32,000 nt of DNA from Microcystis aeruginosa NIES-843. GTDB taxonomy: Bacteria; Cyanobacteriota; Cyanobacteriia; Cyanobacteriales; Microcystaceae. The notes below the pieces were generated by a model, which saw only the letters and a list, made by a program, of their open reading frames with translations, ran no database searches and was not told the origin of the DNA. The position numbers and the translations under genes were made by a program. Positions 3,126 to 31,930 of this stretch are shown one piece after another; positions within the stretch are counted from its first letter, which is position 1, and each line of letters opens with the position of its first letter. Location: the NCBI RefSeq assembly GCF_000010625.1, contig NC_010296.1, positions 1,710,001 to 1,742,000 of the forward strand. Direction: 5' to 3'.

Positions 3126-4989
3126 TTAGGGAACGCACCCTGCATCGATAGCGATCGCGCTATGGAGCGCAGCGGAATTGCCGTCCGGTGCAGCGCATTG
3201 TTGGGAGTCCATAAGTCTTTTGATCAGAGCATTACTCATGAGAATTGCTTTTTTGTGATCATTTTGTGCAATACTAATTACTTCTTCAGCATCTTCATCA
3301 CTGATCATTTCAAATTGTTTCTGGCTTGGACATAAGCTATCGTTCAAATCCCTTGGTTCAAACTTGTCTAATTCATCACCATAACTTCGTTTATTGATTT
3401 TTATTATTTCCTGTCCAATATCACTCAGCAAATACACAAACAATTTATTAATAAATTGTTGTCCTAATTTATTTGGGGTTTGCTGAAAAAGTTTGTTGGT
3501 GGGGTTAGGAGTCAGTAGCCGGTCGTCAGTAGCCGGTCGTCGGGAGTTTCAGGCTTTGTTGCCCTCTCTTTTTTGTACCAACTGATGTACTAAATTAAGG
3601 ATAATGCAAGGTTTTTGATGGTCCCAATCCGATTTTCGCAGCATGAACATCGGATTTTAACAGGTCAAAAGCCTTATTTTAAAAGGGTTTTACCATTATT
3701 CAGCAAACCCTATTTGGATAAAAGGAATGAAAGCAGGTAAAATTTATTGCTGTTGTGAAATTGCGTATTACTTTTAACCTGCCCCTGCTAAAGACACCGA
3801 ATAAAATTGGAGCTGGTTTTCTATTTTCAATTTTGTACCAGGTCTTCCTTGTTTTTGTAAGATACCTCCCATGATATCCCAATTTTTCGCCTTCTTTTAT
3901 GTAATTTCGTATTTCAGAGTTGTCGTGGTCTTTTACATCTAAACAATGGACTGGCTTATCCTCATTGTATAGTATATTAAAATCATGCTCAGTAAATACT
4001 AATTTGCGGATTTGAGAGCTTTTTGTAATACACTTACAAATATTGTTATCACTCAACTTCCGTTGCTCAATTTTTGATTTTTTTAACGCAAAAAATTCAT
4101 TTGCGCCAGTAGCAATACCTCTCGTAAACGTACCGTATAGGGACAACTTACAGAAGCCATTTGGAGATACTTGTTCAGTGAACAATGATGAAATAATAGG
4201 TGTCCACTTTTGGTTGTATGGTAAATTCGATGGTTCGATTTCCCACTGATAGAATTTACTAATATCAGATATTTTATCTATTTCATCACTTTTTTTGATC
4301 TGTAAAATTTTAATGGTTTCTTTTTTTCCGTCATTTTTACAAAGAAGCACACAAACAGTTGTCGTTGCCTCTGGGAAAATTTCTTTTTCATTGTCAAAGA
4401 TTATTATTTGCTTCAATAAATGATTTTCAAGGAGACTTTTTTTGATTTCTTTTCCGTAGCCAGTATTAAAAAATTCAAAAGGCATAATATACGCCAAGTT
4501 ACCATTGATTTTAAGTTCTCTTAAAGACTTGACAAGGAATAGGGAAGAGATATTAGAGTAACCGATAAGTTTCTTCCCTATTTTTTCTTCAATTTTTGGT
4601 AATATATCATGACGCTTAAGAAATTTCTGAAATCGCATATATGGTGGATTACAAATGATACCGTCAAATTTTTCAGTTTCAGCTTCGAGGTAATCACTAT
4701 TGATAACTCTCAAATAAGGACTGTCACCATTACGATTGAGAAACTCAAATATATTTCTATCAATCTCATATCCAATGAAATGTACTTGATTACCTGAAGG
4801 TGTTTTTATTGCTTCATCATAAAAAACGCCTAAGCCAAACGCTGGGTCTAATACTGTTTCTGGATTATCTTTCAAAACCCACTGTACCATGAGGCGAGCA
4901 ACGCACACAGGTGTAAAAAACTGACCGTAATCCTTCCTATGATTCAGTGGAGTTTCAGCTATATATTTTAACTCACGCATTAATAACAT
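3126..4989 (-). pseudogene. Gamma-class N6-adenine DNA methyltransferase (TaqI/Eco57I-like), split by a MITE insertion
   Basis: The N-terminal part (3700..4989) has GQFFTP, the DPAFGLGVF SAM-binding motif and the catalytic CNPPYMRF motif. It ends YPN-RVC-stop, where RVC-stop is read from MITE sequence. The 105-aa ORF 3126..3443 continues the same protein once the MITE and one TSD copy are removed. Confidence 0.85.
3475..3710. mobile_element. MITE family B copy (~235 bp) with terminal inverted repeats GGGTTTGCTGAA / TTCAGCAAACCC and TATTTG target-site duplication
   Basis: TIRs were read directly. TATTTG is present at 3470-3475 and 3711-3716 (boundary ambiguous by 1 nt). A near-identical copy lies at 17575..17801. 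Confidence 0.85.
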
Positions 4990-5177
4990 CCCAAGGTAAT
5001 TAAAATATCAATATCACTATCTGAACGGAAATCTTCCCGTAAAACTGAACCAAATAATGCCAATTCGGTGACTTGCCACTTTTGACAAAATGCTTTAATT
5101 TGTTCCATTGGTAGTTCTATTTTTGTGTTCATCGGATTAGTTTTACTCCCAAGCTTTCTAGTTGTTGGTTTATCCAA
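4980..5177 (-). pseudogene. Truncated MNT-type nucleotidyltransferase (antitoxin of HepT/MNT modules). The C-terminal half and the HepT partner are missing.
   Basis: [20 protein letters not shown] is the GS-X9-DxD nucleotidyltransferase motif. The ORF stops about 10 residues after DxD and overlaps the methyltransferase ATG at 4989. The likely real start is the Met at 5132. Confidence 0.65.
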
Positions 5178-5289
5178 GCGGTTGCCGTTTCTTCGTCGGT
5201 TTCTATTGCTTTTTCTACTCCTATTTTAGCAATTTCTAAGAGTTGACTTAAAAGGGAGATTGATGATTTTAATGAGTCAGAATCAGTGA

Positions 5290-5415
5290 GAATTAGCCGT
5301 TTATGATGCTGAGGATGCGTTTTTAAGGGTCAATCGTCTAGGGTTGTCCTTATTTCGGTTTTGGGGTGATGAGATTCATGAGCGTTTAATGGAGAATTTG
5401 AATAAATTTTTATGA
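5290..5415 (+). pseudogene. C-terminal remnant of a DUF559/Vsr-like endonuclease domain
   Basis: My translation gives ELAVYDAEDAFLRVNRLGLSLFRFWGDEIHERLMENLNKFL-stop, which resembles the G-x-V-LRFWN-x-E-V tail of DUF559 proteins. There is an in-frame stop immediately upstream and no start codon. Confidence 0.35.
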
Positions 5416-6120
5416 TGAGGTATCGTCATTGTTATCAGTTTTTTTACTTCGTAAATCTACCCATAGATGTCTTAAATTAAATGGACTAGGTGGCACATCA
5501 GGACGTTCTAGTTGATGGTCAAGACGACTCACATCATTTTGCCATCCTTCCGGCGATAAAGTTAAATCTATAATGGTTAGTTGTGAACAATGCTCATTAA
5601 CTTCATTTAAAATTTCTCTTAATTCCATATTTTGAATATAACCAATCATTGCTCCCGAACTGACGGATTTTCCATAACCCCATTCAACTAATATAAATCT
5701 GTTAATCCCATTTAGAATATAATTTTTGTTAAGTATCCATTGAGAACTTGATGGAGAACCAAGTCTTTTAGCCTCTAAAGTGTAAAATTTATCCATTCTT
5801 TCAGGATTTGTTTCGTTAGTATCACAGATTCCCCATTGAAAATCAGGTCGTTTATATTCTCGTTTAGCTCGAATGCTATCATCAGCATCAGGTTGATTAT
5901 TGGCTTCATACATACAAGGCCATTCTATTCCTTGATTAGAAATAGTTAATTGTTGGTTGGCATAACGGACAAAAAAGCATAGTTTTCGATTAAGTTCATC
6001 TTCACTTTGGGGTAATTCTTGGTTCTTTTGAAGCATTTCTAAAGCAAGCCTAAAAATAGCTAAAACTCTCTTTTCATGATTACCCCATATATCTTTTTTT
6101 AATAAACTTGGTTTTGTCAT
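5410..6120 (-). CDS. Putative PD-ExK restriction endonuclease (237 aa from Met 6120)
   Basis: KRPDFQWG ... FYTLEAKRLG gives PD-X19-ExK spacing. The ATG at 6120 lies 4 nt after the stop of the 1100-aa methyltransferase and is preceded by AAGGA. The longer ORF to 6222 would overlap the upstream gene by 98 nt. Confidence 0.6.
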   Translation of the reverse strand: MTKPSLLKKDIWGNHEKRVLAIFRLALEMLQKNQELPQSEDELNRKLCFFVRYANQQLTISNQGIEWPCMYEANNQPDADDSIRAKREYKRPDFQWGICDTNETNPERMDKFYTLEAKRLGSPSSSQWILNKNYILNGINRFILVEWGYGKSVSSGAMIGYIQNMELREILNEVNEHCSQLTIIDLTLSPEGWQNDVSRLDHQLERPDVPPSPFNLRHLWVDLRSKKTDNNDDTSS

Positions 6121-6124
6121 AAGT

Positions 6125-9100
6125 TTAGATCCTTTCTTGAGATTCTTGTAAGTTAATAATTTGAAGCATTGTTGCCTCCGCATCCTCACGCGCCATGCTA
6201 CGAGTCCAGAATCTTCGTTCATTACGCTTAATAATAATGATTTCTGTATCAGAAACCGAACGAACTAAACCATCAAGATAAATTTGATGGCTATTATAGG
6301 GAACTAATAAACCGTTTTCTTGTCTTGCTAATTGATCAATAATTTCTATCCATTGTTTTTGCTCTGATTGGGAGACAGGTTGAGGTTTTTCTCCATACTC
6401 TTGTGTAGAGAAAATAACGGCTAACATAGGATTTTCTAACCCCTGAAATTGAGGACGAATAATCTGCCAACTGAATTCACCATCAGGTTCTAATTCTCGA
6501 TTCCAAATATCTAAAAAGGCTTGTAAATAACCTTCTAATCCTTTTTGAGTTTGACGGTTTTTATTAATATCGTTGAGAAGTCCTTGATTTTGTTGAGGAT
6601 AGCTTTCAACAGGTTTTACTGCTTTACTGTTGATATGATTATAGTAAAACTCTATCCCTACATCACACATATCACGAATGAGATCCCGTTCAGCAATGGT
6701 GAGATCATAGACATCAAATATTGCCTCATCTAATTGATATTCTAATTCAGTGAGTTGTGCTTCTATTTTTTCTGGAGTTTTTCCTTCAGGATGTTCAATA
6801 CTATACTTTATAGGATTACAATTCTGTAATTGCTCAACAATATCGATAACTTTTTCCCGAATACCTTGATCCTTTGGAAAAATAATCGGCAAACTTAAAT
6901 ATTGAGTCGTATAGACTTCATCGTGCCAGATTCCCCAGTTACTTGAAGTTAAAAAGAAATAGTATCGAGGTAAAGAAGACCAAAGAATCCCTAAAATAAC
7001 TTTATATTTCCACGTTTCTGGTTCGATTAATTTAATAGAATTAATCGAGTTTTTAACAGAAAATTTCTCGGATTCAAACCGGGCAATAATTTCTCCTTGT
7101 TTATTTAATCTTTGACTAATACCACGCTTGATTAATAGACGTTCTCCATTATATAGAGCGAGTTGTCTAGGGCGCGCTGCTTGTTTAGGTGCTTGTTCAA
7201 ACCAAGAAGGAGAAATTAAACCATATCTTTCAAATTTATCTGTGGGAAGTAATCTCGGTAACTGGCAATCTTTTTGATCCTTTTTCCCTTCTGAAAATCC
7301 TTGACCACTATTCCTAGAGTCATGTAATTCTTTTAAAGTTTGCGATAATTGTATCCCTTTAATTAAACCAGCATCTTGATGATTTCCCCAATAATAAATT
7401 TTCCATAAAGAATCATTATAAAATAGTTCACTTTGTCTGATACCACGACGATCCATAACACTCAAAATAACAGCTTGCACATTTTTAATCATAGCTGTTT
7501 TTTTAGCAGACCAATAAGTGACAACTTGATCTTTTAAGGTTAACTCTGTCTGATTGACTTTCTGAAAAATAATTGAAGCAAAAGGAGAAATTGAGGCACT
7601 AGATTGGTTTTTATTACCAGATTTAAAGAAAATATCACGAACATGAGCAAAATTGACAACTTCTTTTAATAAGACACTGTTTAACCATTTTTGTCTAAAT
7701 TCTTTGCTTTTATCATGGGTCTTAAAGAAAATACCTGTTGATACCACTAATGCTGACCATCCATTATCTTTTAAAAAATCAAATACTCTCCAGATAAACG
7801 CTTGAGAACGTTCTTTATCTCCGACTGGATAATCACGTTCTTGACACCATTGTAAAGCGATATTTAAGTCTTTTGTGCCTTTTTTATCCTTCGTTTTAGG
7901 AGATCCCCAAGGAGGATTACCGACAACAACATCAGCACATTGACTGCTAAAATTTCTAGATAATATCACATCCTCTGAGTTAGAAAATTCTTGAAAAGCA
8001 TTATCGCAGACTAAATTATTAAAGTGATTATCCTCAGATAACCCATTCGCTTGATAAATTAAAAAGGGTAATTTTTCACCTCGTTTAATTTGTAATAAAA
8101 TGTCTGGAGGCTCTTGATAATTTAATAAAGCAAGATATAGACTAAATGCAGTAATTCTGATAGCTTCTGAATTAATTTCTATGCCAGCTATCTGATTTTT
8201 TAAGATTTCTCTTAACTCTTGCCAACTTAATCGCTGTCGCTGATTTTGATAGACTCGATGTCTCACAATTCTCCGAAATGCTTCCACTAAAAAGATTCCT
8301 GAACCACAACAAGGATCAAGAATACGGGGATGAGTTGTCAAACAATCTGACGTTAAAACTTTAGACAAGACAAATTCTACTAATGAACTCGGTGTATAAT
8401 GCGTCCCATTATCAATATTTTCTGTATTTGACTCATGATAAAATTCTTCATAAATACTACTAATTAAAGAAATAGGAATTATATCAAATTTATAAGCCCA
8501 GAAAAATAATTTTTTTTGTGGATCAATATCTCCCTGTAAAAATTCTTGTAAGAGAGATAAATGCCGTTGCTCAACAGATTCCGCTTCTTGTTCATCAGAA
8601 GGGAACATATCTCCGTTAAAATCTTGACTCAACCGATTAAATAAAGCATAGGTAAAACTTTTATCACTTAATATTTTGATATAATGTTGTTTAGCTTCAG
8701 TTTCCATATTTAACTGATCGTCAGGAGCATTAAGTAAGGCTTTCCATGTTGCATTGTTTTGTGCTATTGCTTCAAAATACTCTTGAGTTAAAATTCCTCT
8801 ATCTTCCAAATAGCGAATAAAAATTGATCTACCAATTAAAGCATGAGCATATTTACGTTTATTTTCGCTTAATCCTTCACGGATTAAGGCTAAACGAACT
8901 GTTTTTAAATCTTTGATCAGTGATTGATCAGCACGTTGATTAGATGTTTCAAAACGCTCATCCTCAAAAAGCTTCCCTGATTCGATTTGTTCCCGTCTGT
9001 ATTGATAAAGTTTTGAAGTTACTTCAAGTATGTTTTGGGCAACTTCTAACGGTCTATTATTTTTCTTCCAATCTTCTATACTTCTAGCAGGTGGTTTGGT

Positions 9101-9427
9101 TAGATCGTAAATAGCTAGTTCACCTTCTTTCGCTAAAAATAGGTAACTTGGTCTAGCCATACACCATATTTTATTAAAGATTTGACGTACTTTTTCATCT
9201 TCTTGAGTATCACATTTAGCAAAAATAATCACAGGATTATTATTAATAAAAAAAACTTTTTCTGCTTCAACTTGCTGGGCTAATTCTAACCAATCTCCTT
9301 TTTCTATCCACTCTTCTAAAGTTATTTCTGACAATGACGCTTTTGAACTCACTAAGTCGCCTTGACTAAAATCGAGTTTATTATAAGCATATTCTAACAA
9401 TTCATAAGCAGAATTAGCTGTCATCAT
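6125..9427 (-). CDS. Large Eco57I/MmeI-like N6-adenine DNA methyltransferase with an N-terminal helical region and a C-terminal target-recognition region (1100 aa)
   Basis: HYTPSSLV, ILDPCCGSGIFLVEAF (SAM motif I) and VVGNPPWGSP (motif IV). The ALIGRSIFIRYLEDRGIL helix is typical of Type IIG/PglX-like enzymes. About 550 aa follow the catalytic motif. Confidence 0.8.
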   Translation of the reverse strand: MMTANSAYELLEYAYNKLDFSQGDLVSSKASLSEITLEEWIEKGDWLELAQQVEAEKVFFINNNPVIIFAKCDTQEDEKVRQIFNKIWCMARPSYLFLAKEGELAIYDLTKPPARSIEDWKKNNRPLEVAQNILEVTSKLYQYRREQIESGKLFEDERFETSNQRADQSLIKDLKTVRLALIREGLSENKRKYAHALIGRSIFIRYLEDRGILTQEYFEAIAQNNATWKALLNAPDDQLNMETEAKQHYIKILSDKSFTYALFNRLSQDFNGDMFPSDEQEAESVEQRHLSLLQEFLQGDIDPQKKLFFWAYKFDIIPISLISSIYEEFYHESNTENIDNGTHYTPSSLVEFVLSKVLTSDCLTTHPRILDPCCGSGIFLVEAFRRIVRHRVYQNQRQRLSWQELREILKNQIAGIEINSEAIRITAFSLYLALLNYQEPPDILLQIKRGEKLPFLIYQANGLSEDNHFNNLVCDNAFQEFSNSEDVILSRNFSSQCADVVVGNPPWGSPKTKDKKGTKDLNIALQWCQERDYPVGDKERSQAFIWRVFDFLKDNGWSALVVSTGIFFKTHDKSKEFRQKWLNSVLLKEVVNFAHVRDIFFKSGNKNQSSASISPFASIIFQKVNQTELTLKDQVVTYWSAKKTAMIKNVQAVILSVMDRRGIRQSELFYNDSLWKIYYWGNHQDAGLIKGIQLSQTLKELHDSRNSGQGFSEGKKDQKDCQLPRLLPTDKFERYGLISPSWFEQAPKQAARPRQLALYNGERLLIKRGISQRLNKQGEIIARFESEKFSVKNSINSIKLIEPETWKYKVILGILWSSLPRYYFFLTSSNWGIWHDEVYTTQYLSLPIIFPKDQGIREKVIDIVEQLQNCNPIKYSIEHPEGKTPEKIEAQLTELEYQLDEAIFDVYDLTIAERDLIRDMCDVGIEFYYNHINSKAVKPVESYPQQNQGLLNDINKNRQTQKGLEGYLQAFLDIWNRELEPDGEFSWQIIRPQFQGLENPMLAVIFSTQEYGEKPQPVSQSEQKQWIEIIDQLARQENGLLVPYNSHQIYLDGLVRSVSDTEIIIIKRNERRFWTRSMAREDAEATMLQIINLQESQERI

Positions 9428-21455: not shown

Positions 21456-22905
21456 ACTCCCACCGTCAAGCTACGCTGTGACGGGGGATTCTTTCCACAT
21501 CGCTGTTAGAAATTCCTTGTTCAACGAGACAACTTAGATTCTCAATGTCTCCACTGAAAATCCAGAGGCCGGACTCTCCCAAGGCGTTTGGGTCGGTTTC
21601 TGTTTGCCCAACAGTACCGTTGAGATGATTTCCCAAATATTGTAACCCTTTTTTAAGAATATTTATTGCTGCATTATGATCCCTATCTAAGACTGTTTGA
21701 CAATTGGGGCATTGATGAGTTCTAGTACTTAATGTTTTTTGAACTCTCGTCCCACAAACTGAACAATCTTGAGAAGTGAAATGGGGAGGAACAGCAACAC
21801 AAACAATCCGATAAATCTTGGCAAAATAATTCAACCATTCAGTGAATTGATACCAAGAAGCATCACTAATCGACTTGGCAAGTTTACGGTTTTTGACTAA
21901 GTTTCTTACCTTTAAAGCTTCATAAACTACCAGATCATTAGACTGGACTAACGCCAAAGCGTCTTTAATTGCTTTGTCTTTACGTTGTCTTGATACTTTA
22001 AGATGAAGCCTAGCTACTTTTATCCGTTGCTTGTGATAGTTGTTAGACTGTTTCTTTCCTTTGCGAAATTGTTTTGATAATCTCCTTTGTGCTTTTTGAA
22101 ATCGTTTTTCTGACTTGCTTAAATAACGTGGATTCTCTACAGTATTGCCTTGAGCGTCAGTATAAAACTCTTTTAAACCTAAGTCAATTCCTGTTATTTG
22201 TCCCGTTGGTTTATGGTATTCTTGCCGTTCTACGTCAATCAAAAACTGACAATAATAACCGTCAGCACGTCTAACAACTCTTACCCGTTTAATCTGTTGT
22301 TCTGAATAATAAACTAAGGTTTTTTGACTACACCATAAATCAAATTCTCCTGCTTTAAAACCATCGGTAAACTTGATTTTACGTCGATTATCAGATAGTT
22401 GGTAGCCCGTTAGTTTATACTCAACCGAACGGCTATGCTTTTTGAAACGAGGAAAACCCTTTTTCCCAAGTATCTTAGCATGACAATTCTGGTAAAACCG
22501 ATTAATTGATTGCCAGGCTCTATCAGCAGCCGATTGACGAGCTTGAGAGTTTAATTTATTAACATAAGGTGTCTCTTTATTGTTAGCTAGTACCGCACAA
22601 AGTTTTTGGAGATCATTGCGGGTTGTCCCTTGATTGTCCATCCAATAACGAACACAAGAGTTACGCACAAACTGAGAAGTTTTGATAGCTTCATCAAGCT
22701 GGTGATATTGCTCTGGGGTTCCGTTTTTTAGCTTCGCTTCTACGACTAGCATCTAACAATCCTTGACCTTTGGCTAAGTTAATTATAACACAGTTTACCT
22801 ACAAATGGTAGAATTAAAATCGGGCTTCTCAGTTAATATCTTGGTCGGATTTCATCCCCCGCAAAGGTTGATGTCTTGTCGAAAAATTTAGCGGGGGCAT
22901 TCATC
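21456..22905 (-). mobile_element. IS200/IS605-family tnpB-only (IS1341-like) element; boundaries approximate
   Basis: Contains tnpB and no tnpA. An imperfect subterminal hairpin TCGGAT..CCCCCGC / GCGGGGG..ATCCGA lies at ~22845-22910 on the tnpB-upstream side. The element is flanked by two fragments of one M48 gene. Confidence 0.7.
21466..22752 (-). CDS. tnpB: TnpB (IS605 OrfB) RNA-guided endonuclease, apparently intact
   Basis: RuvC triad candidates GIDLGLK, VVYEAL and DRDHNAAINI. Zinc finger CSVCGTRV...CPNCQ. 428 aa. Confidence 0.9.
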   Translation of the reverse strand: MLVVEAKLKNGTPEQYHQLDEAIKTSQFVRNSCVRYWMDNQGTTRNDLQKLCAVLANNKETPYVNKLNSQARQSAADRAWQSINRFYQNCHAKILGKKGFPRFKKHSRSVEYKLTGYQLSDNRRKIKFTDGFKAGEFDLWCSQKTLVYYSEQQIKRVRVVRRADGYYCQFLIDVERQEYHKPTGQITGIDLGLKEFYTDAQGNTVENPRYLSKSEKRFQKAQRRLSKQFRKGKKQSNNYHKQRIKVARLHLKVSRQRKDKAIKDALALVQSNDLVVYEALKVRNLVKNRKLAKSISDASWYQFTEWLNYFAKIYRIVCVAVPPHFTSQDCSVCGTRVQKTLSTRTHQCPNCQTVLDRDHNAAINILKKGLQYLGNHLNGTVGQTETDPNALGESGLWIFSGDIENLSCLVEQGISNSDVERIPRHSVA

Positions 22906-23730: not shown

Positions 23731-23900
23731 CTCCTGATAACTGATAACTGATAACCGGTAACTGATCACTGATAACTGGAACTACCTGAAGCATTGATCC
23801 CCGTGGTGTGGTACTGTCAATTCAGTGTATTTATCGGCACTGGCTTAAGATTTGTCGCTATTGTCCTCCCCTTCTCTCGTCGCTGTTTTTGAGGCTTTCT

Positions 23901-24896
23901 ATGACCGACATTCCTTTCACCCTAGACCAACTGAGAATTCTCAAAGCGATCGCTGCCGAAGGAAGCTTTAAACGGGCGGCAGATACCCTGTATGTATCTC
24001 AACCGGCGGTCAGTCTTCAGGTACAAAACCTCGAAAAACAGCTAAATGTGCCGTTATTTGACCGGGGCGGTCGGAAAGCCCAATTAACGGAAGCGGGATA
24101 CCTACTCTTAAGCTACGGCGAAAAAATTATCACTCTCTGTCAAGAAACCTGTCGGGCGATCGAAGATCTACAAAATCTGCAAGGGGGAACCCTGATCGTC
24201 GGCGCTTCCCAAACCACGGGAACCTATCTTCTTCCCCGCATGATCGGGCTTTTTCGGCAAAAATACCCAGAAGTATCCGTACAGCTACAAGTTCATTCCA
24301 CCCGTCGCACCTCTTGGAGCGTTGCTAACGGTCAAGTGGATTTAGCCATTATCGGGGGGGAAGTTCCCGCCGAATTACAAGAAACCCTGCGGATTATCCC
24401 CTACGCAGAAGATGAACTGGCTTTAGTCCTGCCGATTTTTCATCCTCTGTCTAAGGTAGAAATGATTCAAAAAGAGGATTTATATCGACTAAAATTTATC
24501 ACCCTCGATTCCCAATCGACGATTCGCAAAGTCATCGACAAGGTTTTAACTCGTTGCGAGATCGATACCAAACGCTTAAAAGTGGAGATGGAACTTAACT
24601 CGATCGAGGCGATTAAAAATGCCGTACAATCTGGGTTAGGGGCGGCTTTTGTCTCGGTGACAGCGATCGAAAAAGAACTACAAATGGGAGTTATCCACGC
24701 TACCAGAATTAAAGACGTGGAAATACGACGCACTTTGTCGGTAATTATTAACCCGAATCGCTATCGATCAAAAGCCGCCGAAGCTTTTACCCTAGAAATA
24801 CTCCCCCAATTCTCCACCTATCCCGAATATCTGGCTGACGACCACAACTTTGAACCGATTCCTAACTCGCAACCCGCCGAAATTATTAGTAAATAA
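23901..24896 (+). CDS. rbcR: LysR-family transcriptional regulator, RbcR/Ycf30 (CbbR-like) type
   Basis: [48 protein letters not shown] is the highly conserved Ycf30/RbcR HTH. Start set at Met 23901 rather than the ORF-track 23808. Confidence 0.85.
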
Positions 24897-24932
24897 GTCG
24901 CTCGAGATGGGCAAAATCTCCCTACATTTAAG

Positions 24933-25598
24933 CTATCTCTTGGGAAAATTACTGCCGGGATAAATTACTTTTTTATCGACTTTAATCCAATGGAGACTCT
25001 CTAAACGACTTCTAAGATTAGTAATAGTTACTCCCAACTCGTCGGCGATCGCATACAGAGGTCCCCATTTCGTCAAGTCACGTCCCTTGATGGCTTTCTC
25101 TAACTCACTCATCGGCATTAGTAAACAACTGGCAAAATATTGGGCTTGCCATTCAATTCTTTGGCTAGAATCAACTGTCCGACACAGAAAAGGTTGAATT
25201 GTCTCTAGGGAATCTCCCTGATTGATTCGATCCAAAAAGTTAGAGACAGCTGTTTGATTAATATGGAGTACAAAATGACCAATTTCATGGGCTAAACTCG
25301 AATTTTTAAAACCTTCTTTTGCTAGGGATGAATTTTGGGAATCTTTTAAGAATTTTACATCTTCATTAAGAATAATTTTCTTTTCTGTGGGAATAATCAT
25401 TGCGGCGATTTCTCCCTCTTTATCTGGCTTTATATCCGTCCATTCAATAGCCAAATCAAAATAATCGGCCGCTGCTTCCGCAATATCGCAATTTTTTAAG
25501 GGACGACGACGATGAGCTTTTACTTTCTTAAGAATATTGTCTGCCTGAGCTTCAATCACTGTTTTGGGAATAAAACTATAGGGTTTAATAATATCCAA
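24933..25598 (-). CDS. ImmA/IrrE-family (M78, DUF955) zinc metalloprotease
   Basis: HEIGHFVLH (HExxH) and the downstream EWQAQYFASCLLMP motif typical of ImmA/IrrE. The start is 5 nt after the XRE stop. Confidence 0.85.
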   Translation of the reverse strand: MDIIKPYSFIPKTVIEAQADNILKKVKAHRRRPLKNCDIAEAAADYFDLAIEWTDIKPDKEGEIAAMIIPTEKKIILNEDVKFLKDSQNSSLAKEGFKNSSLAHEIGHFVLHINQTAVSNFLDRINQGDSLETIQPFLCRTVDSSQRIEWQAQYFASCLLMPMSELEKAIKGRDLTKWGPLYAIADELGVTITNLRSRLESLHWIKVDKKVIYPGSNFPKR

Positions 25599-25603
25599 GA
25601 TAT

Positions 25604-25960
25604 TTACTCCTGCTCATCTAATTTTGTCGCCTCAGAAATAATTTTTTTGGCAAAATTGGGATTGTCTTTCATGCGACGCAATAAAATCGGCATTTGTTGG
25701 TATTTTTGAACTAATTCTTTGAAGACTTTTTGATCATCTGAACTCAGTCGTCCCGCCAATTCCCCTAAGGTTTGAGCATTTAATTTTAAATGAGTCGCTA
25801 AGGACTCAATAACTTGCTGACTAGGAGGATAACCCGCATGATCATTTTCTAGCTTCGATAGATAGGTATAGTCCACCCCAATCAACTTAGCTAGTTCTCT
25901 CTGACTATATTCTTCCTCTCGACGAGCTTTGCGGATAACCTGTCCAAATGTTTCTGACAC
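25604..25960 (-). CDS. XRE-family helix-turn-helix transcriptional repressor
   Basis: IRKARREEEYSQRELAKLIGVDYTYLSKLEN is a canonical HTH_3 domain. GTG start at 25958-25960. First gene of the XRE-ImmA pair. Confidence 0.85.
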   Translation of the reverse strand: MSETFGQVIRKARREEEYSQRELAKLIGVDYTYLSKLENDHAGYPPSQQVIESLATHLKLNAQTLGELAGRLSSDDQKVFKELVQKYQQMPILLRRMKDNPNFAKKIISEATKLDEQE

Positions 25961-25987
25961 TGCTTTTCTCTCAATCGCTCAAAAAAA

Positions 25988-26017
25988 ATTATATCAAGGG
26001 TTGACTATTTCAGTCAA
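25988..26017 (-). promoter_or_regulatory. Near-consensus sigma70-type promoter for the XRE gene (TTGACT-18 nt-TATAAT)
   Basis: The minus strand reads TTGACTgaaatagtcaacccttgaTATAAT. The -35 lies inside operator O1. The -10 lies ~28 nt upstream of the GTG start. Confidence 0.65.
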
Positions 26018-26018
26018 C
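26000..26018. promoter_or_regulatory. Operator O1: perfect palindrome GTTGACT-N5-AGTCAAC
   Basis: gttgactatttcagtcaac read directly. It supplies TTGACT -35 hexamers on both strands; the plus-strand candidate is TTGACT-18-TAGAGT (-10 at 26025-26030). Confidence 0.7.
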
Positions 26019-26042
26019 ATACGCTAGAGTTAGTTCATTGGC

Positions 26043-26061
26043 GTTGATTATTTTAGTCAAC
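26043..26061. promoter_or_regulatory. Operator O2: GTTGATT-N5-AGTCAAC (one mismatch to O1)
   Basis: gttgattattttagtcaac, centred 43 bp from O1, between the candidate plus-strand -10 and the Cas4-like start codon. Confidence 0.65.
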
Positions 26062-26117
26062 ACAATAGCAAACACTGCCGTATCATCCTAGCATTTTCCT
26101 GACTGAGGGGAAAAATC

Positions 26118-26948
26118 GTGTCCTGCCAGTTTCCCAAAAAGCCTTGGTATCCTCCGATGAGCTATAGTCTTTGGCGATCGCTTAAACCAGCGATTGGCTA
26201 TGAGAATTGGCATTGTCAGACAAAACGGGGGTTTGAAAAAGCGCGAAACAAAGAACCAGAAGTTCAAAGATTACTATCGCAAGATAATCAACCGCAAAAA
26301 ATTGGTAAGTTGGCACAACGAGGAGTTTTTGAGTTTCATCAAGAGCCAGGGAGATTATCGAGTCCTGATGGGGTGGAACAAGTCGCAGAAATCCTGCAAT
26401 TAAATCAAGAATCGCCAGAAATTCAAGCCAGGGTTTTAGTAATTTTAAACAATTACTATCAACAACCAATTTTATTGAATAAACAGATTATTGATTTACC
26501 TAGAGGTGATGAAGGTTATCCAGAACCTATTGTTATCGAGCAAGGTAACTATCGGTTTAATTTGTCCGCTGCCTTTGATTGTATTTTTAGAGAAGCTGAT
26601 GACACTATACATATTTTAGATTTGAAAACTGGTCAATCTAATTTTGATCGTCGTCAGGCTCATGTTTATTTACTGGCGGCTAGTTACCGTTATCCTCAGG
26701 AAAAAATTGTCGCTTCTTTTTACAATTTAGAAACCCAAACAAGCTCAGAAAATATCTCCCTGTCTTCCGAGGCAATAGAAGCAGTTAAAATCGAACTAGC
26801 TTTCCTGTCCAAAAAACATCAACAACAACTAAAAAAATATAAAAATCACCCCGAAGATTTTTATCATATTTTCCCGCCCCAAAGTGGCTATGCCTGTCGT
26901 TATTGTCCTTTTACATCGATTTGTGATTCTGCAAATAAGGAAGTTTAG
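26118..26948 (+). CDS. Cas4-like PD-(D/E)xK nuclease with a predicted 4Fe-4S cluster
   Basis: AAFDCIF (motif II Asp), ILDLKTG (D-x-K), RRQAHVYLL (QxxxY), and C-terminal CRYCPFTSIC = CX2CX5C, plus an N-terminal Cys (NWHCQ). Alternative ATG start at 26157. The stop lies 3 nt before the pAgo ATG. Confidence 0.8.
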   Translation: MSCQFPKKPWYPPMSYSLWRSLKPAIGYENWHCQTKRGFEKARNKEPEVQRLLSQDNQPQKIGKLAQRGVFEFHQEPGRLSSPDGVEQVAEILQLNQESPEIQARVLVILNNYYQQPILLNKQIIDLPRGDEGYPEPIVIEQGNYRFNLSAAFDCIFREADDTIHILDLKTGQSNFDRRQAHVYLLAASYRYPQEKIVASFYNLETQTSSENISLSSEAIEAVKIELAFLSKKHQQQLKKYKNHPEDFYHIFPPQSGYACRYCPFTSICDSANKEV

Positions 26949-26951
26949 ATC

Positions 26952-29195
26952 ATGAATTACACAGCAGCTAACACAGCCAACTCTCCAATATTTTTGAGTG
27001 AAATTAGTTCCTTAACTCTCAAGAATAGTTGTTTAAATTGTTTTCAGCTTAATCATCAAGTTACTAGGAAAATAGGTAATCGTTTTAGTTGGCAATTCAG
27101 TCGGAAGTTTCCCGATGTGGTGGTTATTTTTGAAGATAATTGTTTTTGGGTATTAGCTAAAGATGAAAAATCTATTCCTTCTCTACAACAGTGGAAAGAA
27201 GCTTTATCAGATATTCAAGAGGTTTTACGAGAAGATATTGGCGATCACTATTATTCTATTCATTGGCTAAAAGACTTTCAGATAACAGCTTTAGTTACAG
27301 CACAATTAGCAGTTAGAATTCTAAAAATATTTGGTAAATTTTCCGATCCAATAGTTTTTCCCAAAGATAGTCAGATAAGTGAAAACCAAGTACAGGTAAG
27401 GAGAGAAGTTAACTTTTGGGCAGAAATCATCAATGACACCGATCCGGCTATTTGTTTAACTGTTGACAGTAGTATTGTCTATAGTGGAGATTTAGAACAA
27501 TTTTATGAAAATCACCCCTATAGACAAGATGCTGTTAAATTATTAGTAGGTTTAAAGGTTAAAGATAGAGAAACCAATGGGACAGCTAAAATTATTAGAA
27601 TAGCGGGTAGAATTGGGGAAAGAAGAGAGGATTTATTAACAAAAGCCACAGGTTCAATTAGTCGAAGAAAATTAGAAGAAGCTCATCTGGGGCAACCAGT
27701 GGTAGCGGTACAATTTGGCAAAAATCCTCAGGAGTATATTTATCCATTAGCAGCTTTAAAACCCTGGGTGACAGATGAGGATGAGAGTTTATTTCAAGTC
27801 AATTACGGAAACTTATTAAAAGCAACAAAAATCTTTTATGCTGAACGACAAGAACTATTAAAGTTATATAAACAGGAGGCACAAAAGGCTTTAAATAACT
27901 TTGGGTTTCAGTTAAGAGAAAAAAGTATTAACAGCCAAGAATACCCCGAATTATTTTGGACTCCTTCTATTTCTATTGAGCAAACTCCTATCTTATTTGG
28001 TCAAGGAGAAAGGGGAGAAAAAAGAGAAATTATCAAAGGATTATCGAAGGGGGGTGTATATAAACGTCATCGAGAATATGTCGATCCTGCTCGTAAGATT
28101 CGTTTAGCTATTCTGAAACCAGCTAATTTGAAAGTGGGAGATTTTAGAGAACAATTAGAAAAGCGATTAAAACTTTATAAATTTGAGACTATTTTGCCAC
28201 CAGAGAATCAAATAAATTTCTCTGTTGAAGGTTTAGGATTTGAAAAAAGAGCTAGACTGGAAGAAGCAGTTGATCGATTAATTGGAGTAGAAATTCCTGT
28301 AGATATTGCTTTAGTCTTTCTTCCTCAAGAGGATCGCAATGCTGATAATACTGAAGAAGGGAGTTTATATTCGTGGATTAAAAGAAAGTTTCTGGGTCGT
28401 GGAGTTATAACTCAAATGATTTATGAGAAGACTTTAAATGATAAGAGCAACTATAAGAATATTCTCAATCAAGTTGTCCCAGGGATCCTGGCCAAATTAG
28501 GAAATTTACCCTATGTCCTTGCTGAACCTCTAGAAATTGCCGATTATTTTATTGGTTTAGATGTGGGAAGGATGCCTAAAAAAAATCTTCCGGGGAGTCT
28601 CAATGTTTGTGCAAGTGTGCGACTATATGGAAAACAGGGAGAATTTGTTCGCTGTCGGGTAGAAGATAGTTTAACCGAGGGAGAAGAAATTCCTCAACGG
28701 ATTCTGGAAAATTGTTTACCGCAAGCTGAACTAAAAAATCAGACAGTTCTCATTTACAGAGATGGTAAATTTCAAGGAAAGGAGGTTGAAAATTTACTGG
28801 CAAGAGCTAGAGCAATTAATGCTAAATTTATTCTCGTAGAATGTTATAAGACTGGCATTCCTAGACTTTATAATCTTCAGCAAAAACAGATAAATGCTCC
28901 CTCCAAAGGATTAGCTTTAGCTTTATCAAATCGGGAAGTTATCCTGATAACGTCCCAAGTTTCTGAACAAATTGGTGTTCCTCGTCCCTTGCGCTTAAAA
29001 GTTCATGAATTAGGAGAACAAAGAAACTTAAAACAGTTAGTTGACACTACGTTAAAATTAACTTTACTTCACTATGGTTCTCTCAAAGACCCCCGTTTAC
29101 CTATCCCTTTGTATGGAGCGGACATTATTGCTTATCGACGCTTACAAGGAATTTATCCTAGTTTATTAGAAGATGATTGTCAATTCTGGCTTTAG
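26952..29195 (+). CDS. Long prokaryotic Argonaute (pAgo), predicted catalytically active
   Basis: PIWI motifs: YFIGLDVGR (D537), TEGEEI (E576/578/579), LIYRDGKF (D604), LPIPLYGADIIAYRR (D724). MID 5'-end pocket candidates: YSWIKRK, TQMI, GILAKLG (Y-K-Q-K type). 747 aa, consistent with an N-PAZ-MID-PIWI architecture. Confidence 0.85.
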   Translation: MNYTAANTANSPIFLSEISSLTLKNSCLNCFQLNHQVTRKIGNRFSWQFSRKFPDVVVIFEDNCFWVLAKDEKSIPSLQQWKEALSDIQEVLREDIGDHYYSIHWLKDFQITALVTAQLAVRILKIFGKFSDPIVFPKDSQISENQVQVRREVNFWAEIINDTDPAICLTVDSSIVYSGDLEQFYENHPYRQDAVKLLVGLKVKDRETNGTAKIIRIAGRIGERREDLLTKATGSISRRKLEEAHLGQPVVAVQFGKNPQEYIYPLAALKPWVTDEDESLFQVNYGNLLKATKIFYAERQELLKLYKQEAQKALNNFGFQLREKSINSQEYPELFWTPSISIEQTPILFGQGERGEKREIIKGLSKGGVYKRHREYVDPARKIRLAILKPANLKVGDFREQLEKRLKLYKFETILPPENQINFSVEGLGFEKRARLEEAVDRLIGVEIPVDIALVFLPQEDRNADNTEEGSLYSWIKRKFLGRGVITQMIYEKTLNDKSNYKNILNQVVPGILAKLGNLPYVLAEPLEIADYFIGLDVGRMPKKNLPGSLNVCASVRLYGKQGEFVRCRVEDSLTEGEEIPQRILENCLPQAELKNQTVLIYRDGKFQGKEVENLLARARAINAKFILVECYKTGIPRLYNLQQKQINAPSKGLALALSNREVILITSQVSEQIGVPRPLRLKVHELGEQRNLKQLVDTTLKLTLLHYGSLKDPRLPIPLYGADIIAYRRLQGIYPSLLEDDCQFWL

Positions 29196-29206
29196 AGAGA
29201 AAAATT

Positions 29207-29437
29207 ATGTATAATTCCCCTAGCAATCTACACCATCTAGAAAAATTAGTCAGTGATTTAGTTACCCAAATTAGTTTACTGACGGCAGAAAATCGAGCCA
29301 TTAAAGAAAGATTAGCTTATCTTGAATGGGACTTGCACCGAGAAAATGGTTGTTTACAAGCCGAAAATTTATCTCTACGTCAAATGGTTGACTACTGCTC
29401 CGAAGAATATAATTCTCTTGAGGATTCTCTAAGATAA
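29207..29437 (+). CDS. Small coiled-coil protein (76 aa from ATG 29207; 86 aa if from 29177, overlapping the pAgo 3' end)
   Basis: Heptad-like Leu/Ile pattern LVSDLVTQISLLTAENRAIKERLAYLEWDL...LSLRQMV. Same strand as pAgo and directly after it, with AGAGAGAAAAA upstream of 29207. No family recognised. Confidence 0.45.
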   Translation: MYNSPSNLHHLEKLVSDLVTQISLLTAENRAIKERLAYLEWDLHRENGCLQAENLSLRQMVDYCSEEYNSLEDSLR

Positions 29438-29512
29438 TTACTATAGCAGTTACTAGGAATTGCATAGCTGGTTTTTTTTGGGGAGCAAGCTTTAGATTTT
29501 TTTCTTATTTCT

Positions 29513-31930
29513 TTGAGCGAAAAATGTCTATCATCAAAGGCGATATTATCCCGCCAATTTATGTTACCAGCGATCGGTCAAAATCATCCCCAATCTGGTA
29601 ATTATGCCCCCCTAGATAGCCATCTCTGGGCCGATGCCACCTATCCCCTCGGGGCGCATTATCGGGGCGATAGTGTCACCTTTGCCGTCTATTCTAGAAA
29701 TGCCAGTCAGATTCTTCTGGAAATCTACGATCGCCCGACGGGAGAAAACGCTAAGTATGATTACTGGTTGACAAAAAACCCAAATGATGATATATGGCGG
29801 GCAAAAATCGCTGGTATTGCCCACGGCAGCTACTACGCTTTTCGCTGTTGGGGTCCCAATTGGCAATTTGATCAAAAATGGCAAAGAGGCCACAGTAACG
29901 CCGGTTTTCGGGCAGATGTGGACGATTTCGGCCATCGTTTTAACCCCAATAAAGTCCTCTTCGATCCCTACGCGCGAGAACTTTCCCAGGACATTGAAAC
30001 CCCGGCCATGGTCGCGGCGGGAGAAAATGTTGGAATCTATGCCACAGGAGGGGGGGACTACAAAGGAGTGATCCAGCGGCAATACGATACGGGCAAATGG
30101 TCGCCCAAAGGCATTGTGATCGCTCCGGATGGGACTTCTACCGGGATTCGTCCCCGTCTGGGTGCCGAAAAAGCGATCATTTATGAGGCCCATGTACGCG
30201 GTTTAAGCAATCACCCCTCCGCTAGTCGTTTAGAAGATATTCTCAAGGGAATTAGGGGTTTTGAGGAAGTGGCCAACGTTCCCGACCGGTACAGGGGAAC
30301 TTATGCGGGAGCCGGCTATATGGCCAAATACCTAAAAGCGCTAGGATTTACCACGATCGAACTCTTACCAGTCCAAGAAACCGCTAACGATAATAACCCT
30401 GACGATCGCCCCAGCGGTAACTATTGGGGTTACATGACCTTTGGTTATTTCGCCCCCGATCGCCGTTATGCTTATGATCGCTCCCCCGGGGGACCCACCA
30501 GAGAATTTAAGGCCATGGTCAAAGCTTTCCACGACCAAGGCATGGAAGTTTATCTCGATGTGGTCTATAACCACACCGGAGAAGGGGGCAATTGGGGCAG
30601 CAACGATGTCACCGGATTTGTTAGTTTTGGTGGTTTTGATGTGGTGGAATACTATCAACTCACCGATGAACATTATCTAGTCGATGGGGCCACCGGCTGC
30701 GGAAATCAATTAAACTTTTCCCATATTGTCACCTGTAATCTGGTTCTTGATTCCCTCACCTATTGGTTAGAAACCATGGGAGTTGATGGTTTTCGTTTTG
30801 ATCTGGCCCCCGTCCTCGGCCGAACTCCTTCTAGTCATCAACGAGAAGATCGGGGCAAACAAAAACAATTCTTCCCTAAACATACTTTGTTAGAAAAGAT
30901 CGAGAAATTAGGCAAGAAATACGATGCGGAAATGATCGCCGAAGCTTGGGATAGCTGGGGTTACGAAGTGGGGAATTTCCCGACGGGTTGGGGCGAGTGG
31001 AATGGCCGTTATCGCGATGCAATTCGGCGTTTTTTAAAGGGAGATGGTAATACTTTTAAATTCATCGAACAGGTGAACGGAGATTATCACAATTTTAACG
31101 ACCAAGGCGGACCAGAAAAATCGATCGATTTTATTGTTGCCCACGATGGTTTTACCCTGATGGATTTGGTCAGTTATAACAGCAAAAATAACCTCACTCC
31201 CTGGCCCTTTGGTCCTTCCGATGGCGGCAATAGTAATAACGATTCTTGTGATTCTGGGGGTGATCAGGCCTTACGTCGCCAAAGATTACGCAACTTTTGG
31301 ACGATTCAATTTTTATCTCGCGGTGTGCCGATGACTGTCTGGGGCGATGAATTTGGCCGCAGCCAAAATGGTAATAATAATCCCTACAATATTGATAGTG
31401 TGGCCACTTGGAATAATTATGACATGATTGCCACCCGTTCACCCCATCTACTGCCCACGGGTTATCGGGAAGCTTATCACAATAATTTTGGCACGGGAAC
31501 TAATCAAGAAGAACGCAATCCTTTATTTATTTTTGCCGCTTATATTGCTCACTTAAGACAGAATCATACAGCCCTCAAACAGCGCCACTACGGTGATATG
31601 GTTCTCGATGCCAGTAATGATGTCACCTATTTATTTAAAAAAACCGATGGGGTTAGCGATTTAACTGCCGATGATCGCTGTATTTGGTTTTTAATTGATG
31701 GTAGTGCCGTCGGCGATCACGATTTTTTGGTGTTAATTAATATGTATCATCTGCCGGTGGATTTTCGTCTTCCCTCATCATCCAATAATTATCGTTGGCT
31801 AAGAATTATTGACACGGCCGCTTGGGCAGAAACCGATTATAATTGTTGGTCTGTGGATCAAGGGACAGTAATTGCCGATAACTATCAAGTCAATGGTTTT
31901 TCGATCGTGGTTTGCCAGGAGATTAACTGA
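29513..31930 (+). CDS. glgX: Glycogen debranching enzyme / isoamylase-type GH13 (GlgX-like)
   Basis: N-terminal CBM48-like YPLGAHYRGDSVTFAVYS. GH13 regions DVVYNHT, GVDGFRFDLA, EAWD and VAHDGFT. The start may be the internal Met at 29561. Confidence 0.85.
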   Translation: MSEKCLSSKAILSRQFMLPAIGQNHPQSGNYAPLDSHLWADATYPLGAHYRGDSVTFAVYSRNASQILLEIYDRPTGENAKYDYWLTKNPNDDIWRAKIAGIAHGSYYAFRCWGPNWQFDQKWQRGHSNAGFRADVDDFGHRFNPNKVLFDPYARELSQDIETPAMVAAGENVGIYATGGGDYKGVIQRQYDTGKWSPKGIVIAPDGTSTGIRPRLGAEKAIIYEAHVRGLSNHPSASRLEDILKGIRGFEEVANVPDRYRGTYAGAGYMAKYLKALGFTTIELLPVQETANDNNPDDRPSGNYWGYMTFGYFAPDRRYAYDRSPGGPTREFKAMVKAFHDQGMEVYLDVVYNHTGEGGNWGSNDVTGFVSFGGFDVVEYYQLTDEHYLVDGATGCGNQLNFSHIVTCNLVLDSLTYWLETMGVDGFRFDLAPVLGRTPSSHQREDRGKQKQFFPKHTLLEKIEKLGKKYDAEMIAEAWDSWGYEVGNFPTGWGEWNGRYRDAIRRFLKGDGNTFKFIEQVNGDYHNFNDQGGPEKSIDFIVAHDGFTLMDLVSYNSKNNLTPWPFGPSDGGNSNNDSCDSGGDQALRRQRLRNFWTIQFLSRGVPMTVWGDEFGRSQNGNNNPYNIDSVATWNNYDMIATRSPHLLPTGYREAYHNNFGTGTNQEERNPLFIFAAYIAHLRQNHTALKQRHYGDMVLDASNDVTYLFKKTDGVSDLTADDRCIWFLIDGSAVGDHDFLVLINMYHLPVDFRLPSSSNNYRWLRIIDTAAWAETDYNCWSVDQGTVIADNYQVNGFSIVVCQEIN

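Follow-up and report, generated by a model that had tools for sequence, protein, structure and literature searches.

Among the described systems that come closest to the locus considered here are two kinds of immune components. The APACE1 systems of Microcystis aeruginosa PCC 7806 and Chroococcidiopsis thermalis PCC 7203 were characterised by Bobadilla Ugarte et al. (Mol Cell 2025; PMC12094033; structures 9IAB, 9IAC and 9IAD), who also coined the names ACE1 and APACE1. For both MaAgo/MaACE1 and CtAgo/CtACE1, that work describes a prokaryotic Argonaute (pAgo) which takes up 5'-phosphorylated small DNA guides, performs small interfering DNA (siDNA)-guided cleavage of single-stranded DNA (ssDNA) and cuts complementary plasmid and phage DNA, and which forms a heterodimer with ACE1. 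The latter, an iron-sulfur (Fe-S) endonuclease acting on ssDNA, cleaves 5' of G and trims guides that the pAgo has bound. With expression driven from pBAD, APACE1 was found to be anti-plasmid and anti-phage in Escherichia coli, and the authors list behaviour in the native host as an open issue. CapH/CapP regulators, on the other hand, control immune operons that include CBASS and DISARM (Lau et al. 2022, bioRxiv 10.1101/2022.04.27.489752; Calloji et al. 2026, bioRxiv 10.64898/2026.05.16.725639; PDB 7T5T, 7T5U, 7T5W). Here, we describe a locus within a stretch of 32,000 nucleotides of M. aeruginosa NIES-843 (contig NC_010296.1, positions 1,710,001 to 1,742,000; hereafter the window), in which an ACE1-pAgo operon lies beside a divergent gene pair encoding an XRE-family helix-turn-helix (HTH) protein and an M78 metallopeptidase (Table 1). 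We consider it probable that these four genes make up a single defence module, with ACE1 and an active long-A pAgo as the effector operon and the XRE/M78 pair as its dedicated control switch.

We compared the organisation of this locus across cyanobacterial genomes. The order LysR, M78, XRE, ACE1 and pAgo is the same in all ten species-level Microcystis genomes. Because Microcystis represents a single lineage, more distant pAgo homologs were sampled too, and in five of seven such neighbourhoods, with pAgos 51-71% identical and in unrelated contexts, the divergent M78-XRE pair was found directly upstream of ACE1-pAgo. A metagenome scan with the pAgo alignment then provided 80 further loci. When assessable loci were scored by tblastn, in a set that is not fully dereplicated, the arrangement was present in 21 of 21 Microcystis-type loci and in 46 of 55 other cyanobacterial loci with pAgos 41-71% identical, giving 67 of 76 overall; three of the 55 were anchored on M78, and a few of them are duplicates. 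The nine exceptions comprise five loci with ACE1-pAgo only, three with neither and one with XRE and an M78 fragment. The XRE and M78 genes abut wherever junctions were inspected, and all loci examined for their neighbours have different flanking genes. The reverse test gave the same picture, as the M78 homologs of Rivularia PCC 7116, Crocosphaera UHCC 0190 and Pleurocapsa FMAR1 were all found in this arrangement (3/3), and the sampled distant pAgo homologs that lack ACE1 (loci L079 and L080) also lack the XRE/M78 pair. In addition, the pairwise divergences of the four genes are correlated (Mantel r 0.87-0.95 over 46 dereplicated loci; r = 0.92 for M78 and pAgo).

Taken across these comparative data, the view that XRE and M78 are functionally part of the pAgo operon is supported. 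A first-pass annotation of the window had proposed as much from the letters of this one locus and had named a failure of the genes to co-occur in other genomes as a ground for rejection; this check was passed, and the association has now been found across cyanobacteria, in unrelated contexts and together with conserved operator-like sites. A prophage remnant as the source of the regulators was ruled out, since XRE/M78 accompanies ACE1-pAgo through unrelated genomic surroundings.

Two further genes were seen near this arrangement in some of the sampled loci. In a sub-clade (L012, at 4554-5180, together with L031, L032, L033, L043, L051 and L052, and a remnant in L060), XRE and ACE1 are separated by an extra 208-amino-acid (aa) gene with an MMADHC-like domain (PF10229) that has the same strand as ACE1, and the operators stay beside XRE. 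In some APACE1 systems, this gene may serve as an additional accessory. Genes for putative endonucleases of the Uma2 family (PF05685) were found near APACE1 in four unrelated genomes (L013, 3358-3948; L018, 4267-4854; L099, 1434-2141; L101, 11383-11949), a recurrence that may be due to chance because this family is very abundant in cyanobacteria.

The XRE protein matches Pfam HTH_3 (6e-11) and the PADLOC models HTH_VI (1.6e-12), capH (6e-9) and Control_protein (5e-6). Its AlphaFold (AF2) model, with a predicted local distance difference test score (pLDDT) of 85, has a five-helix HTH followed by two long helices (residues 73-98 and 100-116), and the alignment places a conserved motif, MPxLxRRMxxNPxFA, in these C-terminal helices and an invariant recognition helix, TYLSKLEND, across the family. 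The fold matches include C.BclI, SinR, the N-terminal domain of CapH, DdrO and ImmR. The HTH itself is generic; as modelled, its combination with a two-helix C-terminal domain is the CapH/DdrO architecture. The homologs form a tight clade of 147 proteins confined to cyanobacteria, and those of the M78 protein likewise form a tight, exclusively cyanobacterial clade. Furthermore, in loci L041, L051, L052, L075 and L095 the two are fused into one polypeptide by a coiled-coil linker of ~30 residues (e.g. ...EQVAKLQKENAELKAKVAKLEKKL...). By the Rosetta-stone argument, such natural fusions point to a direct partnership between XRE and M78, and it is the partnership that they support.

The peptidase was recognised by Pfam Peptidase_M78 (2e-9) and PADLOC capP (1e-19). 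Its zinc motif, HEIGH, is of the HExxH type (H104, E105 and H108), and a third zinc ligand, E149, lies in a canonical EWQAQYFASCLLMP motif; these residues are invariant in 35 homologs. So is C139, the cysteine of PFLCR, which falls within the loop that joins HExxH to E149. This loop is longer than that of CapP, with 31 residues against 13 from the second histidine to the cysteine. The AF2 model (pLDDT 89, pTM 0.87) has Thauera CapP (7T5T; E=8e-7, TMq 0.50) as its best Foldseek match in the PDB, followed by IrrE (3DTI/3DTE) and PprI (8SLN), and the sequence profile searched against the PDB also found CapP (8.6e-5). No ImmA structure was among the PDB fold matches, so that likeness to ImmA refers to size and domain content only. 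The N-terminal ~95 residues are clade-specific, and beyond the peptidase domain the model continues into three helices forming an HTH-like unit and then a short hairpin (residues 162-213), with no GAF-sized beta-sheet domain anywhere in the confident 221-aa model. CapP proteins have 278-291 aa with a GAF domain at residues 182-288; this domain, in CapP as in IrrE, contributes one half of the groove that takes the activating ssDNA. Because it is without GAF, the peptidase is not a CapP or IrrE in the strict sense and is ImmA-like by its domain content. Its signal is probably sensed otherwise than through an ssDNA groove, and could reach it by way of an ImmA-like partner or through the invariant C139 beside the zinc site, acting as a cysteine switch. 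Many CapPs carry an autoinhibitory loop with such a switch, placed between HExxH and the Glu ligand.

The 157-bp region between XRE and ACE1 (25961-26117) contains two operator-like palindromes of the form GTTGAC-N7-GTCAAC, O1 and O2 (with GTTGAT in O2). In the window, the palindrome pattern with at most one mismatch occurs six times against 1.0 expected. We then counted the motif in 41 dereplicated non-Microcystis loci. Exact copies of GTTGA-N8/9-TCAAC number 28 in 6.8 kb of XRE-proximal intergenic DNA and four in 371 kb of remaining locus DNA, an enrichment of ~340-fold near XRE; with at most one mismatch, the enrichment is 67-fold, with at least one site in 30 of the 41 loci and at least two in 23. 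Pairs of sites spaced by 40-47 bp (61 bp in L071) were detected as exact matches in 10/41 and with at most one mismatch in 23/41. Typically, in distant loci, ~35 nt separate the motif from the start of XRE and another copy follows ~42 nt beyond, and once gene boundaries were corrected it appeared in most of the remaining loci, e.g. L013, L016, L099 and the fused-type loci. The invariant recognition helix of XRE fits the conserved half-site. Both palindromes overlap promoter-like sites, of which that of xre-m78 is the top scorer in the scanned 4.8-kb region. The operator pattern GTTGA-N9-TCAAC has a third exact match (GTTGAGGATAGCTTTCAAC) at 6592-6610, inside a Type IIG restriction-modification (R-M) gene of the window, where it is probably due to chance rather than an additional XRE site. 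A hairpin in the 5' untranslated region upstream of ACE1 (26094-26114) had no significance (z = -0.05).

On the other side of this region, the effector core is already known. The nuclease, whose gene is immediately upstream of that of the pAgo and co-oriented with it, matches PADLOC Aga_Cas4-like_Nuc (1.6e-131) and is 93.1% identical to MaACE1 (PDB chain 9IAC); the pAgo matches PADLOC pAgo_II over its full length (E=0), and its residues 9-747 align end to end with CtAgo (9IAD; E=5e-261), as a full-length N-PAZ-MID-PIWI protein. From sequence, ACE1 and the pAgo are thus the ortholog of the characterised APACE1 system of M. aeruginosa. In line with the first-pass annotation, which had called the pAgo catalytically intact with a YKQK MID pocket and the nuclease complete in its RecB/Cas4 motif set and CX2CX5C cysteines, the tetrad D537/E578 (in TEGEEI)/D604/D724 maps to CtAgo D533/E574/D600/D721. 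Among 16 pAgo homologs, D537, E578 and D604 are invariant, and residue 724 varies (D in 14, H in two); in the MID pocket (Y473, K477, Q488 and K515), Y473, Q488 and K515 are invariant. The nuclease has the D-DxK motif (D154, D168-L-K170) and 1+3 Fe-S cysteines (C33 and C260-X2-C263-X5-C269). An inactive long-B pAgo with a nuclease effector (BPAN-like) was ruled out, the tetrad being intact and the protein an ortholog of characterised long-A enzymes. From identities of ~90% or higher, we infer that siDNA-guided DNA cleavage, a pAgo-ACE1 heterodimer and interference with plasmids and phages extend to the NIES-843 ortholog. The earlier suggestion that the Cas4-like enzyme processes guides was right, as shown for the M. 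aeruginosa ortholog (PMC12094033); the accompanying statement that a pAgo with a dedicated Fe-S nuclease was undescribed is outdated, such a system having been published in 2025 (PMC12094033; 9IAB, 9IAC, 9IAD).

Some variation was seen among the effectors. Overall, this pAgo is 88-96% identical to other Microcystis pAgos. When ten Microcystis loci (L001-L010) are compared with 23808-31930 of the window, pAgo (88-93% identity) and ACE1 (89-95%) are less conserved than XRE (95-98%), M78 (92-98%), LysR (95-98%) and GlgX (93-96%), which suggests that the Microcystis defence effectors evolve faster than the regulators and flanks. The two most divergent pAgo homologs (P0118, of locus L018, and P0119) have DEDH, with H for D at the fourth catalytic position, and in L018 ACE1 is degraded and the XRE/M78 pair absent.

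Synteny, motifs and homology together point to regulation of ace1-ago by XRE/M78, and the following scheme, which we consider probable, would accommodate them. XRE dimers would bind O1 and O2, 43 bp apart, over the -35 regions of both divergent promoters, and would thereby hold expression of both xre-m78 and ace1-ago low. Upon a stress or infection signal, M78 would cleave XRE in or before its C-terminal two-helix domain, so that the cleaved repressor would be released and the Argonaute operon induced. By analogy, the logic of such a switch would be that of ImmR/ImmA, DdrO/IrrE and CapH/CapP. We also put forward, as a tentative idea that we think rather unlikely to hold in full, that a dedicated repressor/protease switch gates APACE1 at transcription, which would make it the first Argonaute immune system of this kind, through a GAF-less M78 clade that in the inspected cases occurs only beside ACE1-pAgo and that senses its signal by means other than an ssDNA groove. 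Possibilities for sensing would then be C139 beside the zinc, or DNA fragments or complexes made by ACE1 and pAgo, with positive feedback as the outcome.

Several observations weigh against a dedicated, protease-gated control of the operon. Nine of the 55 non-Microcystis loci are without the intact pair and five of these keep ACE1-pAgo, so that the pair is dispensable, and the Mantel correlations could be driven in part by a shared species phylogeny. The plus-strand promoter matches are weak (9/12), promoter-like sites in the region are no commoner than in shuffled sequence, and, since the palindrome includes TTGAC, the -35 consensus, part of its conservation may come from the promoter alone. 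MaAPACE1 is non-toxic in E. coli when expressed from pBAD (PMC12094033), which leaves no obvious need for tight repression. Finally, with the GAF domain absent from the model, the ssDNA trigger of CBASS and Deinococcus systems cannot be carried over in full, and the trigger cannot be taken from CapP or IrrE.

Other roles of the XRE/M78 pair were also weighed. XRE could be a simple autoregulator, similar to the controller (C) proteins of R-M systems, that sets the timing and level of nuclease expression, for instance upon horizontal transfer, without proteolysis, M78 having another role or being a passenger. Such a role would suit its fold and sequence matches, which include C.BclI, C.AhdI and C.Esp1396I as well as the PADLOC Control_protein model (5e-6), and the two operators by the regulator's own promoter are the classic C-protein layout. 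We nevertheless regard it as unlikely: M78 is kept with XRE in 46/55 loci, with abutting genes wherever inspected and with the two fused in several, the four genes diverge in step, the XRE protein has a conserved C-terminal domain of ~50 aa that is absent from C proteins, and the divergent orientation fits CapH/CapP and not C-protein operons.

Pairs of the COG2856-Xre type have, moreover, been predicted as toxin-antitoxin systems (PMC3632139), and the 7T5T chain was deposited as 'CapP toxin'; XRE/M78 might accordingly be a type II toxin-antitoxin-like or abortive-infection module that stabilises the locus or provides a separate defence. The NCBIfam antitoxin matches that would speak for this are weak and far under the cut-offs (spr1629, 5e-6; HipB-like, 1e-6). 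The characterised ImmA, IrrE and CapP are repressor-cleaving regulators and not toxins, the M78 and XRE clades stand only beside ACE1-pAgo in every inspected case, and the operator-like sites are in the promoter region shared with ace1-ago, all of which makes a toxin-antitoxin role quite improbable. It is also conceivable that XRE is merely transcriptional and that M78 acts post-translationally on pAgo or ACE1, which it could activate or inactivate, or on an invader protein such as a phage factor, which it could cleave. The absence of GAF and the clade-specific N-terminal ~95 residues mean that both substrate and signal may differ from those of CapP, and the peptidase has diverged in step with pAgo (r = 0.92). 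Set against this, the XRE-M78 fusions mark XRE as the partner, every characterised M78 paired with an XRE repressor cleaves that repressor, and neither MaAgo nor MaACE1 needs a protease for its activity (PMC12094033); we therefore give such post-translational action very little credence. We rate all three explanations below an XRE/M78 switch controlling the Argonaute operon, mainly on account of the fusions, of how strictly the genes co-occur and of the position of the operators in the promoter region that both operons share.

Table 1. Features of the window, with positions counted from its first letter
Feature	Position	Strand	Basis or remark
Type II N6-adenine DNA methyltransferase	3700-4989	-	
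Unannotated 270-aa open reading frame	5410-6222	-	
Type IIG restriction-methyltransferase fusion, 1100 aa	6125-9427	-	PADLOC REase_MTase_IIG 3e-56
M78 (ImmA/IrrE/CapP-like) zinc metallopeptidase, 221 aa, TTG start	24933-25598	-	Pfam, PADLOC, alignment of 35 homologs, AF2 model
XRE-family HTH protein, putative repressor, 118 aa	25604-25960	-	Pfam, PADLOC, alignment, AF2 model
xre-m78 promoter-like site TTGACT-18-TG-TATAAT	25988-26017	-	11/12 matches; consensus match only
Operator-like palindrome O1, GTTGAC-TATTTCA-GTCAAC	26000-26018	.	Overlaps -35 box and spacer of xre promoter-like site
Alternative ace1-ago promoter-like site TTGACT-18-TAGAGT	26001-26030	+	Weak consensus match
Operator-like palindrome O2, GTTGAT-TATTTTA-GTCAAC	26043-26061	.	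43 bp from O1; overlaps -35 box of ace1-ago promoter-like site
Candidate ace1-ago promoter TCAACA-18-TATCAT	26057-26086	+	9/12 matches, weak consensus
ACE1, Argonaute-associated Cas4-family Fe-S ssDNA endonuclease, 276 aa	26118-26948	+	PADLOC, PDB 9IAC match, motifs; function from ortholog (PMC12094033)
Long-A pAgo, 747 aa, MaAgo ortholog	26952-29195	+	PADLOC, CtAgo 9IAD alignment, tetrad conservation
Small coiled-coil open reading frame, 86 aa from TTG at 29177 or 76 aa from first ATG at 29207	29177-29437	+	Open reading frame list

The layout of the locus was checked against a six-frame list of open reading frames (ORFs) of the window, in which all five ORFs are present at the coordinates of the first-pass annotation, junctions included: 5 nt separate the XRE stop from the TTG start of M78, 3 nt the ACE1 (Cas4-like) stop from the pAgo ATG, and the first ATG of the small ORF is 12 nt past the pAgo stop. 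The low G+C of the locus that had been reported with these ORFs was likewise borne out by a G+C profile (0.33-0.40 over 25001-29500 against 0.44-0.54 in flanking genes and 0.51 in petA), and the gene identities by Pfam and PADLOC, with Peptidase_M78, HTH_3, PDDEXK_1 and Piwi all above curated Pfam cut-offs in the four larger proteins. Between the flanks, which had been read as rbcR and glgX, the outcome is divided. One is indeed a gene for a GlgX-family debranching enzyme; the other is a LysR-family gene of CbbR/RbcR-like type, for which the name rbcR is plausible, its matches to CbbR-type models (1e-45) being under every NCBIfam cut-off. A search for an empty site, bearing on the question of island insertion, found the exact LysR protein on short contigs only, with the M78 gene adjoining in all of them. 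About 1 kb upstream of the LysR gene lies a gene for a TnpB/IS605 OrfB-type protein (21466-22752, -) with OrfB_IS605 and a Cas12f1-like TNB domain, and an Rfam scan of the window matched no RNA family.

The small coiled-coil ORF downstream of the pAgo had been proposed as an accessory, a proposal that did not survive comparison. Across 13 Microcystis loci with adjacent pAgo and glgX, it is intact in four and precisely deleted in three, leaving an 84-nt spacer, and the remaining loci have frame-breaking deletions of 20, 52 or 1 nt, loss of the ATG, or insertions resembling miniature inverted-repeat transposable elements (MITEs). Outside Microcystis, a relative was found only in L011 (66 aa, 62% identical). 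An exhaustive search returned 16 matches in 1.84 billion representative proteins, mostly truncated Microcystis variants together with a few proteins of 97-141 aa matching at their C-termini, and the coiled-coil matches in Pfam were all below cut-offs. As it is eroding in most Microcystis loci and nearly absent elsewhere, a role as system accessory was ruled out; judged by these sequences, the ORF is variable and decaying and is not part of the system. The MITE-like insertions (~100-200 bp) lie immediately past the ATG of the small ORF in L001, L024 and L029. In L002, L005, L006 and L009, the flank fetched on the downstream side of pAgo lacked glgX, a sign that the pAgo-glgX region may be rearranged there.

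Elsewhere in the window, a second block of low G+C (0.31-0.35) extends over 3700-9427 on the minus strand. As this block encodes R-M genes, the window holds two separate defence loci.

The XRE/M78 pair beside APACE1 is apparently unreported. The text of the APACE1 paper (PMC12094033) does not mention XRE, HTH, M78 or ImmA, and two CapH/CapP papers mention neither Argonaute nor pAgo. Our search for literature linking pAgo or Argonaute with CapH/CapP, XRE, ImmA, COG2856 or DUF955 gave nothing relevant, with most subscription journals and the APACE1 supplements outside that search. What appears to be new is the joining of a known Argonaute system with a known type of regulator, in the form of a GAF-less clade that seems dedicated to APACE1.

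Long-A pAgos are usually viewed as stand-alone nucleases, and their control in the native host has been little studied. A conserved module with operator-like sites offers a handle on when a cyanobacterium turns on its Argonaute, and it opens the questions of whether DNA damage or infection sets off pAgo immunity, as happens with some CBASS, BREX and DISARM systems, and of how a GAF-less M78 protease senses its signal. This bears on genetic work as well: pAgo limits natural transformation and plasmid maintenance in cyanobacteria, as shown for SeAgo in Synechococcus (PMC10653904), and cyanobacterial engineering could make use of XRE and its operator as a compact inducible switch.

Compared with known systems, the effector core does not differ from that of APACE1 (PMC12094033): the same two genes are found in the same order and orientation, with the DEDD tetrad, the D-DxK motif and the four-cysteine Fe-S motif. 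The difference is that APACE1 is described there as a two-gene operon, with XRE/M78, operators and native regulation not mentioned. Other pAgo systems share with it DNA-guided DNA interference by a DEDX PIWI nuclease, but do so without a dedicated guide-processing nuclease, and we know of no dedicated repressor/protease pair in them. The C proteins of R-M systems are alike in HTH fold and tandem operators only; they are HTH-only proteins of ~75-85 aa, co-oriented with the nuclease gene and binding tandem operators ahead of their own gene, whereas XRE here has 118 aa, an extra C-terminal domain, a divergent orientation and a protease partner. In both ImmR/ImmA (ICEBs1 and phage-like elements) and DdrO/IrrE (Deinococcus), an XRE repressor is cleaved by a COG2856/M78 protease, which derepresses its targets. 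ImmA is small and lacks a GAF domain, as does the M78 protein here. In contrast to the present locus, ImmR/ImmA governs excision of a mobile element, and DdrO/IrrE a DNA-repair regulon; neither pair controls a defence operon of nucleases. A GAF domain is present in IrrE, and IrrE and PprI are the next-best fold matches of M78 after CapP. From CapH/CapP, the locus differs in its smaller peptidase (221 aa against 278-291 aa) without a C-terminal GAF domain, in the longer loop with its invariant cysteine between HExxH and the third ligand (31 against 13 residues), and in its Argonaute partner, which the CapH/CapP papers do not list. The likeness to CapH/CapP, in turn, lies in an HTH repressor and an M78 zinc peptidase whose genes lie upstream of an immune operon on the other strand, in PADLOC matches to capP and capH, with CapP as the best structural match of the peptidase and an HTH with two-helix C-terminus in the repressor, and in fusion variants that occur in both families.

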